From: Euryarchaeota archaeon UBA596
GTDB lineage: Archaea > Thermoplasmatota > Poseidoniia > Poseidoniales > Poseidoniaceae
Direction of reading: 5' to 3'
NCBI GenBank assembly: GCA_002498205.1
Contig: DAGQ01000015.1
Location: forward strand, 1-32,874
DNA: 32,874 bases
A program made the translations under genes and the position numbers. The notes beneath the pieces were generated by a model. The model worked only from the letters and a program-made list of their open reading frames with translations. It made no database searches and had not been told where the DNA came from. Below, one piece after another: positions 1,201-3,817 of this stretch. The number at the start of each line of letters is the position of its first letter. Within the stretch, counting starts at the first letter, position 1.

Positions 1201-1309
1201 AGCACGTCCGAAACAACTCACAATGATGAACTTGATGTAATTAAGGCACTTAGAAAACAGTGGGTTTAAGGATTCCCTAAATTTAACCATGTATGTCGGA
1301 GAGAGGATT

Positions 1310-3562
1310 ATGGCTTCTAAAGGTTCAGATGTATTACAATTGAGGATAGCTAAAGCAATACCTAGTGATGTAGGTTTTGGTAGGGCAAGAATTTCGAGTG
1401 ATAATGAACTTGGTTTGAAACCAGGCGATATTATTGAAATCAAAGGAGAAACAGGAATGACTGCTGCAACCTATTGGAGAAGTCGCCCTGAAGATAGTAA
1501 AATGGATATTGTCCGGATAGATGGGATAATTAGAAAAAATGCTGGAGTATCTTTAGGAGATAAGGTAGAGATACGTAAGGTAGATGTTGTCCCTTGTAAA
1601 AAATTAGTACTTTCACCAGTAATGGTAAATAAGCAAAATAAAAACAAACCTTCTGCAATGCAATTTGGGCCTAATATCGAAGGATTTGCTAGGAGGGGTT
1701 TGAATAAAAGACCAGTAGTAGCAGGAGATAGAATCTTTATTCCAGGAATTACATTATTTGCTGAGACATTACCTTTTGCCGTTCGTTCTACAACACCAAA
1801 AGGAATCGTTCAAGTATTGCCAGAAACTGAAATCGTCATTAAAGATGAACAAGTAGATGAAGAATCATCTGCTGATTCAGAGGGAATTACTTATGAAGAT
1901 ATTGGGGGGATTGGAAACCAATTACAAAAAGTCAGAGAAATGATCGAGTTGCCATTAAAACACCCAGAATTATTTCGTAGATTAGGAATTAGTCCACCAA
2001 AAGGAGTATTGCTTCATGGACCTCCTGGTACGGGTAAAACAATGATCGCAAAAGCGGTTGCAACAGAAACAAATGCACATTTTAAATCAATAAATGGACC
2101 CGAGATTATTAGTAAATATTATGGAGAATCAGAAAAACAACTTAGAGAGATTTTTGATGATGCTGCTGAAAATTCTCCAGCAATAGTTTTCGTTGATGAA
2201 TTAGATAGTATTGCACCAAAACGTGAAGATGTTACCGGAGAAGTTGAACGAAGAGTAGTAGCTCAATTGTTAACTTTAATGGATGGAATGCAAGGTCGTG
2301 ATAATATTGTTGTGATTGGAGCAACCAATCGTAGAGATGCGATAGACCCTGCCTTACGTAGGCCTGGTCGATTTGATAGGGAGATTGAAGTTGGAGTACC
2401 AGATAGAAACGGTAGGGCAGAAATTGTAGATGTACATACAAGAGGTATGCCTTTAAGTGATGATTTTGATATTGAATGGATTTTAGAGAACACTTACGGA
2501 TTTGTAGGTGCGGATGTTTCTGCATTAGTCAGAGAGGCAGCTATGAAAGCATTGAGGAGATATCTTCCTGAAATAGATTTAGATGCTGAAGTAATTCCAC
2601 CAGAAGTATTAGAAAAAATGGAAGTAGTAATGGAAGATTTTAAGCTAGCTATTAGGGAGGTTGAACCTAGTGCACTAAGAGAAATTTATGTTGAAATCCC
2701 AGAAACAGGTTGGGATAAAGTAGGTGGTTTAGAAGAAATTAAAAACAGACTCAAAGAAAGTGTCGAGTGGCCACTAACAAAGCCTGAATTATTTGATCAT
2801 TTTGGGATTAAACCACCTAGGGGAATTGTATTATTTGGTGCGCCTGGGACTGGAAAAACATTGTTGGCAAAAGCGATTGCAAATGAAGCCAAAGCGAATT
2901 TTATATCAATCAAGGGACCCGAAATGATTAGCAAATGGGTAGGTGAATCAGAAAGAGGGATTAGAGAGATATTTAAGAAAGCAAAACAGGCATCACCGTC
3001 TATTATTTTCCTTGATGAATTTGAAAGCATTGCTCATTCTAGATCATCAGGAGGAATGGATGGAGGTGGAACTCAATCTGGAAATAGGGTTGTAAACCAA
3101 TTACTCGCTAGTATGGATGGCATAGAATCTTTAGATGGTGTCATTGTAGTTGCTGCAACAAATAGACCGGAAATGATAGATCCAGCCTTGATTAGAAGTG
3201 GTAGATTTGAAAGAGTATTACATGTGCCTCCGCCAGATGCAAAAGCAATCAAAGAAATTTTTAAAATTCATAGTGAAGGAATGCCATTAGGGAAATTCAA
3301 TCTTGGAGATATTTCAAAGAAGATGATAGGATATACTGGAGCAGATGTAGAATCAGTATGTAGGGAAGCAGCATTAACTGCCATGAGAGAATCCAAGAAA
3401 ACCGTAACAAAGACGCATTTTGAGAACGCATTGAATATGGTAAGACCTACAGTTAATGATGATATGTTAGAATACTACAAGAAAATGGAAGCTTTACTTG
3501 TTAGTGGATTAAGTACTGTTCGTAGAGGAAAGGATACACAAAGAGGTATGGAATCAGTTTGA
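1310..3562 (+). CDS. cdc48: Cdc48/VCP/VAT-type double-ring AAA+ ATPase
   Basis: N-terminal Cdc48-type substrate-recognition domain ([21 protein letters not shown]...). Two AAA modules with Walker A GPPGTGKT (D1) and GAPGTGKT (D2), Walker B VFVDELD / IFLDEFE, and second-region-of-homology [19 protein letters not shown] / [20 protein letters not shown] prefer ATG 1310 (MASKGSD...), preceded by GGAGAGAGG and about 26 nt downstream of TAAATTTAA. The track start at 1289 is an alternative. Confidence 0.95.
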
Positions 3563-3569
3563 GGTGATC
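3561..3569 (+). promoter_or_regulatory. Shine-Dalgarno site GAGGTGATC overlapping the cdc48 TGA stop
   Basis: Nine nucleotides matching the GGAGGTGATC-type SD consensus. The same TGAGGTGA stop/SD arrangement recurs at 6793-6801 (+) and 8255-8262 (-). Related AGGTGAT sites precede the starts at 11415 (-) and 16981 (+). Confidence 0.6.
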
Positions 3570-3571
3570 AT

Positions 3572-3817
3572 ATTAGTATTACTGTTTTTGGATATGAACT
3601 TGTAGGTAGAGAAGTTTTTGATAAAAGTGAAGAATTGCTAGGAATTGTTACTGAGATACATATAAATTACACTAATGGTGGTGTTGAATTCATCTGTGTT
3701 AAGTTAGAAAAAGGAATAAATTCAACTAAATTACCTTGGACTGCTAAAGATAATATTGTACAGGTTCCTCCCAGTGAAATTGAACGGTTAGAAGGCTCAA
3801 TTTTCTTAAGAAGATAG
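3572..3817 (+). CDS. Small PRC-barrel domain protein, with a probable non-canonical ATT start. The track ORF starts at TTG 3635.
   Basis: The frame is open from 3563. The translated stretch ISITVFGYELVGREVFDKSEELLGIVTEIHINYTNGGVEFICVKLEKG... matches the PRC-barrel pattern (l.G..V.d..g..lG.v.di.id...g.v..l.v) beginning upstream of TTG 3635. No in-frame ATG/GTG/TTG lies between 3563 and 3635. A 9-nt perfect SD, GAGGTGATC (3561-3569), sits 2 nt before ATT 3572. Confidence 0.7.
   Translation: MSITVFGYELVGREVFDKSEELLGIVTEIHINYTNGGVEFICVKLEKGINSTKLPWTAKDNIVQVPPSEIERLEGSIFLRR

Follow-up and report, generated by a model that had tools for sequence, protein, structure and literature searches.

The classical bacterial example of translation from an AUU codon is infC of Escherichia coli, which encodes initiation factor IF3, and ATT, ATC, ATA and CTG are all listed as starts in NCBI translation table 11. 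The AUU of infC is part of a demonstrated feedback loop, and IF3 rejects AUU (PMC4705826). In archaea, termination-reinitiation in Haloferax has an efficiency of 40-60% at a distance of 13-14 nt and is lost at 22-23 nt, and the coupled pairs often encode partners in a complex (PMC10666635). Many archaeal PRC-barrel genes neighbour Cdc48, a link that was left untested, and not all stand-alone PRC barrels act in division (Zhao et al. 2023, bioRxiv 10.1101/2023.03.28.534520). Here we analyse a stretch of 32,874 nt (the window; contig DAGQ01000015.1 of assembly GCA_002498205.1) from Euryarchaeota archaeon UBA596, a member of the Poseidoniales, in which a PRC-barrel gene follows cdc48 and no canonical start codon precedes its first conserved strand. 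From comparison with relatives we conclude that the coding region very probably starts at the AUU at position 3572, under the guidance of a Shine-Dalgarno (SD) sequence that overlaps the cdc48 stop codon. The features of the junction are as follows.

1289..3562, + strand: cdc48, an AAA+ ATPase gene of the Cdc48/VAT family, 757 codons from the first ATG, ending ...RGMESV-TGA

3560..3562, + strand: TGA stop codon of cdc48, the first three bases of the recurrent TGAGGTGA stop/SD overlap

3561..3569, + strand: SD sequence GAGGTGATC of the PRC-barrel cistron, 9 nt perfectly complementary to the 3' end of 16S rRNA

3572..3574, + strand: ATT, the probable PRC-barrel start codon, from SD spacing, conservation in the genus and alignment with the ATG of orthologues

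3572..3817, + strand: PRC-barrel (CdpB-like) gene, 81 codons plus TAG (3815-3817), Pfam PF05239

3575..3634, + strand: PRC-barrel codons 2-21, translated, 5' of any canonical start, containing F6, E9, R13, D17 and the first strand

3635..3637, + strand: TTG, the first canonical start and the choice of gene callers (60-aa product), rejected as the real start

The cdc48 product carries the Pfam domains CDC48_N, CDC48_2, two AAA and AAA_lid_3, and the 3' end of its gene reads GGT ATG GAA TCA GTT TGA. The frame after this stop continues as GGT GAT CAT ATT(3572) AGT ATT ACT GTT TTT GGA TAT GAA CTT GTA GGT AGA GAA GTT TTT GAT AAA AGT GAA GAA TTG(3635). It is open from 3563 to the TAG at 3815-3817 and encodes GDHISITVFGYELVGREVFDKSEE ahead of TTG 3635, while the in-frame TGA three codons 5' of ATT 3572 bars a longer open reading frame (ORF) in the window. 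An earlier reading of these letters without database searches (the sequence-only reading) had described the junction correctly, as can be read directly. The cdc48 TGA (3560-3562) and the PRC-barrel frame are in one phase; ATG, GTG and TTG are absent from all 24 codons between 3563 and 3634; and GAGGTGATC at 3561-3569, a perfect 9-mer against the 16S rRNA end, overlaps the stop and is followed by 2 nt (3570-3571) and then by ATT 3572. By our estimate, a run of 24 codons free of canonical starts has a chance of about one in three in a genome of 33.5% GC. Such an absence is thus common by chance, and the weight of the evidence rests on domain coverage and conservation.

A six-frame search of 40 related genomes identified the PRC-barrel gene in all of the other species of the genus (7/7) and in all but one of the 33 genomes searched outside the genus but within the family and order, nearly always just 3' of cdc48. 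The related genomes, together with look-ups in metagenomes and assemblies (some contigs are from Tara Oceans samples), provide 14 distinct DNA sequences at the level of the genus. The codon homologous to 3572 is ATT in 13 of these and ATC in one (L008), and TGAGGTGA is invariant ahead of it in all of them. Its third base is T in 13 sequences and C in one, whereas 16 of 20 neighbouring third positions vary. A single mutation would restore ATG at this site, yet ATG has not been regained within the genus. ATG, GTG and TTG are absent from all 81 codons in five of the 14 sequences, the first canonical codon of the remainder wanders from codon 11 to codon 79, and the codon at TTG 3635 is TTA in nearly all congeners. 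Other genera have an ATG start at the same position (alignment columns 1-3; 20 genomes) and products of 79-81 aa, so the ATT-started product of 81 aa is exactly of orthologue size.

The distance between cdc48 and the PRC-barrel gene takes two values in the genus. The gap is 9 nt, in frame, in the window and in L001-L004, L006, L035-L038 and L040, and 10 nt, out of frame, in L005, L007, L008, L031, L034 and L039. In L005, L007 and L008, a TAA in the PRC-barrel frame lies immediately 5' of the ATT or ATC. Because this TAA abuts the start codon and cdc48 ends in another frame, the N-terminus of the protein cannot come from an upstream start or from readthrough in these three. L031, L034 and L039 have the 10-nt arrangement with AAA or CAA in place of the TAA, and a GTG within the SD is in frame. 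Outside the genus the gap is anything from 8 nt to over 50 nt and all frames occur, and the Cdc48 orthologues keep the same last residue, followed by TGA, TAG or TAA.

Two further arrangements were observed among the related sequences. L011 and L014, from genus g14, encode a PRC-barrel orthologue with CTG (L011) or TTG (L014) at the usual start column; both have an in-frame GTG inside the SD, three codons 5' of that column, and their start is ambiguous. At L033:100-160 (ENA contig NODE_34113, 2946 nt), unrelated AT-rich DNA replaces the 3' end of cdc48 5' of ggatcagtTTGAGGTGAATAAAATT, and this junction is either a rearrangement that removed cdc48 or a chimeric assembly.

The 16S rRNA gene is absent from the source metagenome-assembled genome (MAG; 1.3 Mb, 59% complete, 33.5% GC), and that of the congener G004 was used instead. 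Its 3' end is ...GATGGATCACCTCCT, with the terminal part ...GGATCACCTCCT, and it is from complementarity to this end that GAGGTGATC is identified as a perfect 9-nt SD. In the source MAG, the distance from GGTG to ATG in long ORFs with GGTG within 20 nt of the first ATG peaks at 5 nt (30 of 83). ATT 3572 lies exactly 5 nt past its GGTG, the modal spacing of the genome, and the second ATT (3578) lies 11 nt past it. The TGA of TGAGGTGA closes an ORF of at least 80 codons at 11 sites, of which eight continue to an ATG (spacer 5-8) and two to an ATT or ATC. At these other junctions, too, 5 nt is the modal spacing.

The stretch ahead of TTG 3635 has the properties of coding sequence. PF05239 (PRC) matches the 84-aa open frame, with residues 8-60 aligned to profile positions 4-58 (25.1 bits, cut-off 21.2), and a scan of the whole genome with a PRC profile gives 24.4 bits at 3584-3742. 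The 60-aa version started at TTG has no Pfam match. As the match begins at residue 8 of the open frame and is lost from the TTG version, the PRC domain begins 5' of 3635; this placement bears out the earlier argument that the N-terminal stretch must be translated and that the domain starts before TTG 3635. In pairwise comparisons of the 14 genus sequences, the ratio of nonsynonymous to synonymous substitution rates (dN/dS) is 0.18 for codons 2-21 versus 0.16 for codons 22-81, and variable sites in codons 2-21 number 8, 4 and 16 at codon positions 1, 2 and 3. For the whole gene dN/dS is about 0.17, at a protein divergence of up to 37%. F6, E9, R13 and D17, four of the ten invariant residues, are unchanged in a 27-sequence alignment that includes other genera. 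An AlphaFold2 model of the 81-aa product, based on this alignment, has a mean predicted local distance difference test score (pLDDT) of 87.4 and a predicted template modelling score of 0.77; residues 11-20 have a pLDDT of 93 and the first strand is at residues 14-16.

We predict that cdc48 and the PRC-barrel gene form an operon, in which the latter is the second cistron and gives a product of 81 residues. The SD GAGGUGAUC, overlapping the cdc48 UGA, would pair with the 3' end of 16S rRNA and would thereby bring AUU into the P site, 5 nt from GGUG, the distance favoured in this genome. The initiator tRNA may pair with the first two bases of AUU, with the mismatch at the third position accepted. 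Read by initiator tRNA, the AUU presumably gives a product that begins with Met, and the N-terminal tryptic peptide would be (M)SITVFGYELVGR. Initiation at AUU was one of three explanations put forward in the sequence-only reading, and the one that the comparisons favour, given ATT or ATC in 14 of 14 sequences, a TAA upstream in three species, the modal SD spacing and the orthologue ATG in the same column.

Judging from the distance, ribosomes or small subunits that end cdc48 9 nt upstream probably feed the AUU start (translational coupling), as a 9-nt gap is within the coupling range expected from the distance dependence in Haloferax (PMC10666635). Like the termination-reinitiation pairs described there, the two genes share a strand and the SD coincides with the 3' end of the first gene; all genus sequences keep the gap at 9-10 nt. 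An overlap of 4 or 1 nt, with AUG or GUG as the restart codon, is the commonest form of coupled pair, whereas here there is a gap of +9 or +10 nt, the restart would be near-cognate, and the coupling itself is predicted. We tentatively suggest that the weak start codon keeps the PRC protein below, or in a fixed ratio to, Cdc48, though the chance that it does not is somewhat greater. The constancy of the third base and the fact that ATG was never regained provide a hint that the weak start is kept on purpose. Alternatively, the weak codon may reflect AT drift that is tolerated in a genome of 33.5% GC and buffered by the long SD.

The locus resembles infC in that an AUU lies behind an SD, the gene is truncated by gene finders limited to ATG, GTG and TTG, and the weak codon has been kept over evolution. 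It differs in that the product is a PRC barrel and not an initiation factor with control over start-codon fidelity, and no infC-type loop is expected for a product without a tie to initiation fidelity. No observation on this gene points to the autoregulation that the sequence-only reading had mentioned for AUU starts. The host also differs, being an archaeon with aIF1 and aIF2, and the start belongs to an internal cistron, with an SD that overlaps the stop of the gene before it.

Several observations weigh against initiation at AUU 3572. In a Sulfolobus in-vitro system, aIF1 discriminates against AUU (reviewed in PMC4705826), and inefficient initiation would be expected from this codon if the SD did not make up for it. 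Three orthologues have their Met at the position of the second ATT (3578; alignment column 3), and in L031, L034 and L039 the GTG within the SD might act as a start. As regards coupling, the junction RNA is unstructured (z = +1.66), so a free 30S subunit could bind directly. We also considered an RNA structure that hides the SD until translation of cdc48 opens the region, and dropped it because 3520-3620 is less stable than shuffled sequences (it folds worse than 196 of 200). The GTG within the SD was likewise rejected as a general start: only some relatives have it in frame, a TAA comes after it in L005, L007 and L008, and in the window it lies in another frame.

The shared frame of the two genes allows the reading that a Cdc48-PRC-barrel fusion arises when ribosomes read through the cdc48 UGA at a low level; this fusion would supply the N-terminus of the barrel and would carry the junction peptide ...GMESV-X-GDHISITVFGYELVGR. 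The frames do coincide, with a single TGA between them, in the window and in L002-L004, L006, L035-L038 and L040, as in programmed stop-codon readthrough, and one public gene call (P0002) reads through with TGA as W. However, programmed readthrough involves a conserved in-frame arrangement without a further stop, and the frame relation, on which the sequence-only reading had made this explanation depend, is not kept among relatives (the 10-nt gap in six sequences, with TAA in the first three). In other genera the gap ranges from 8 to more than 50 nt in all frames and cdc48 also stops with TAA or TAG. Furthermore, the three codons between TGA and ATT change as an SD and spacer would (GGT GAT CAT, GGT GAG AAT, G GTG AGA TAA), and the stand-alone product has exactly the length of its orthologues. 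We therefore give the fusion very little chance; occasional readthrough in this species is possible, but it cannot be the conserved mechanism. The shared frame in the window is incidental, as it follows from the SD spacing. Global recoding of TGA, already thought unlikely in the earlier reading, is ruled out by ordinary stop usage (TGA ends 209 of 679 long ORFs in the genome) and by cdc48 orthologues that end in TAA or TAG. The third explanation offered there was a sequencing or assembly error, or else a recent inactivating ATG-to-ATT mutation in a decaying pseudogene. It could appeal to the ATG at this position in other genera and to a source genome that is only 59% complete, but ATT or ATC recurs in 14 distinct sequences from independent assemblies and samples, and purifying selection acts along the whole gene (dN/dS about 0.17). 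Its probability is next to nil.

Initiation further downstream, at the second ATT (3578) or at TTG 3635, would give a product 2 or 21 residues shorter. TTG 3635 is the sole canonical start and is used by gene callers (P0007), and the column of ATT 3578 holds Met in three orthologues. Nevertheless, TTG 3635 is replaced by TTA in nearly all congeners, the region preceding it is conserved with four invariant residues, and the 60-aa product loses its Pfam match. Codon 3, the second ATT in the window, is GTT in L002 and L004, and its 11-nt spacing from GGTG occurs at one of the 83 ATG starts. Starts at these codons are thus highly improbable. A reading that accepts the position but not the codon is that restart after termination is mostly codon-independent, with SD-held ribosomes resuming at the right distance and AUU not selected as a start. 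In the genus, the overlap of stop and SD and the 9-10 nt gap are invariant. In the source genome, ten TGAGGTGA junctions lead to a start, and at two of them the codon is ATT or ATC. The codon, however, is always AUU or AUC (AUG elsewhere) and never an arbitrary triplet, and its third base is far less variable than neighbouring third positions. Near-cognate starts are also present in genes whose SD is not at the end of a long upstream ORF (the aIF2-gamma and C34 dehydrogenase genes described below). We consider this reading improbable as well, and retain initiation at the AUU itself.

The start codon proposed here is already used publicly: an NCBI protein of the congener G003 (P0003, MSVTVFGY..., 81 aa) corresponds to the ATT-started product, and it is the only correct 81-aa version among the public entries compared. 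P0005 and P0007-P0013 are truncated at an inner TTG, GTG or ATG (53-71 aa; no more than 60 aa in P0005, P0007, P0008 and P0010-P0013), and P0002 is fused to the C-terminus of Cdc48, with TGA read as W. Where the gap is 10 nt without a TAA, the SD-internal GTG is in frame and leads to the public calls MNKISIT and MRQISIT (P0004, P0006). Because gene callers are limited to ATG, GTG and TTG, public collections hold mostly wrong versions of a conserved protein of the cell-division type.

Modelling indicates that the 81-aa protein is a stand-alone PRC barrel of the CdpB type. The closest solved structures in a Foldseek search of the PDB are the PRC barrels of Archaeoglobus fulgidus CdpB1/CdpB2 (8onw and 8qzo, TM 0.71-0.76), and MTH1859 (1pm3) also matches (TM 0.66-0.77). 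A sequence profile retrieves 1pm3, 8qzo and 8onw as well. Like CdpB1 and CdpB2, the protein is a stand-alone barrel of about 80 aa with these as its best structural matches, two paralogues in relatives and a Cdc48 neighbourhood. Its sequence identity to the solved CdpB proteins is only 12-22%, and it is its fold and the paralogue count that suggest a role with SepF and FtsZ at the division site. Two PRC-barrel genes, one linked to Cdc48 and a second elsewhere, were identified in each of G003, G004, G018 and G039, which fits a CdpB1/CdpB2-like pair. A second copy was not found by the whole-genome profile scan of the source MAG, which is incomplete. From its fold and gene neighbourhood, the protein is most likely a small adaptor in FtsZ/SepF-type cell division, a Cdc48 partner, or both.

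What is new in this locus is the conserved near-cognate start at the overlap of stop and SD; the Cdc48-PRC gene order was already known. As a comparative example of an AUU start in archaea it is clean: the codon is retained across a genus, behind Cdc48, in a neighbourhood previously flagged as frequent but unexplained. The other near-cognate starts described below, most of all the aIF2-gamma CUG, suggest together with it that abundant marine archaea exploit or tolerate a freer choice of start codons than annotation allows for. Of greater interest than the PRC-barrel gene itself are this genome-wide pattern and the CUG of aIF2-gamma.

Scans of the whole MAG for ORFs that lack canonical starts (a six-frame coding model with overlap filtering, excluding antisense shadow and N-block ORFs, and with relatives checked) identified at least seven candidate genes, the PRC-barrel gene included, that appear to use AUU, AUC, CUG or ACG as the start codon in place of the AUG of their relatives. 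One of them encodes aIF2-gamma, the initiator tRNA-carrying subunit (contig C1, minus strand; G000:C1:2486-3010 matched the N-terminal part; loci L065-L093). This gene has 122 codons without ATG, GTG or TTG, and its start region reads CTG GCG AAA AAA TTA CCA AAA CAA CCC GAA GTA AAT, preceded by GGGGGA+TTTAAA. At the position of the CTG, most genera of the same family start with ATG and one with TTG; the CTG itself is kept in 6/6 congeners examined. It is also the sole possible start in at least four genomes that belong to another family (L083, L085, L088, L092), and in L083 and L088 a TGA lies two codons 5' of it. By analogy, the CUG of aIF2-gamma might belong to a feedback loop in archaea like that of the infC AUU. 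Our literature search returned no paper linking Poseidoniales with start codons and none reporting a CUG start of aIF2-gamma. It is conceivable, though we regard it as doubtful, that near-cognate initiation on SD-led cistrons is a regular, lineage-wide feature of these marine archaea (probably Marine Group II/Poseidoniales), with the level of aIF2 or the stringency of start-codon choice controlling the synthesis of aIF2, and with the PRC-barrel AUU as a dial on expression that keeps a small adaptor tied to Cdc48 and low in stoichiometry.

The other candidates encode metabolic and nucleic acid enzymes. A 366-aa dehydrogenase-like protein with an N-terminal membrane anchor (KSKKIIKIGAIIIILIF) is encoded at C34:9658-10758 (+; loci L051-L063). 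Its ATC start comes directly after a TAA and 5 nt past AGAGGTGAT; the codon is ATC, ATT or ATA in congeners and ATG in other genera. In the source genome, an 8-codon mini-ORF (ATG CAA CAC CCT TTA AGA GGT GAT TAA) abuts the ATC. A cytidylate-kinase-like gene at C11:1625-2158 (+; loci L095-L116) has an ATT directly after a TAA, behind GGAGATGAT, and its P-loop (GHPGSGTTT) is encoded 44 codons 5' of the first ATG. Across the order, the start codon of this gene is ATG, GTG, TTG, CTG, ATT, ATC or ATA.

RNase HI (C36:2330-2887, +; loci L117-L140) has TAA ACG AAT AAG GGG in the source genome and in G005 and ATG AAT AAG GAG in congeners, and its first canonical start is 126 codons in. It probably begins at the ACG, or at an ATC 7 codons later. 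Two other positions with an ATT after an SD (C53:2731 and C125:283) look non-coding and were rejected.

On the minus strand of C102 (reverse-complement 14343), a 1447-codon ORF ends in TGAGGTGATT, which is followed by ATC ATC ACA GAT. The gene that begins here encodes a PfkB/RfaE-like sugar kinase, with ATC ATC behind TGAGGTGAT and a conserved VIVIGDVMLDRY motif 5' of any canonical start. On the minus strand of C90 (reverse-complement 30929), a GT2 glycosyltransferase gene has an ATT behind CAGGAGGG, and the junction reads CAGGAGGGATTAAA ATT AGT TCA TTA CCA CAA GTA GCT ACA GTA ATT CCA ACT. The conserved VIPT motif of this glycosyltransferase is encoded 23 codons 5' of the first canonical start.

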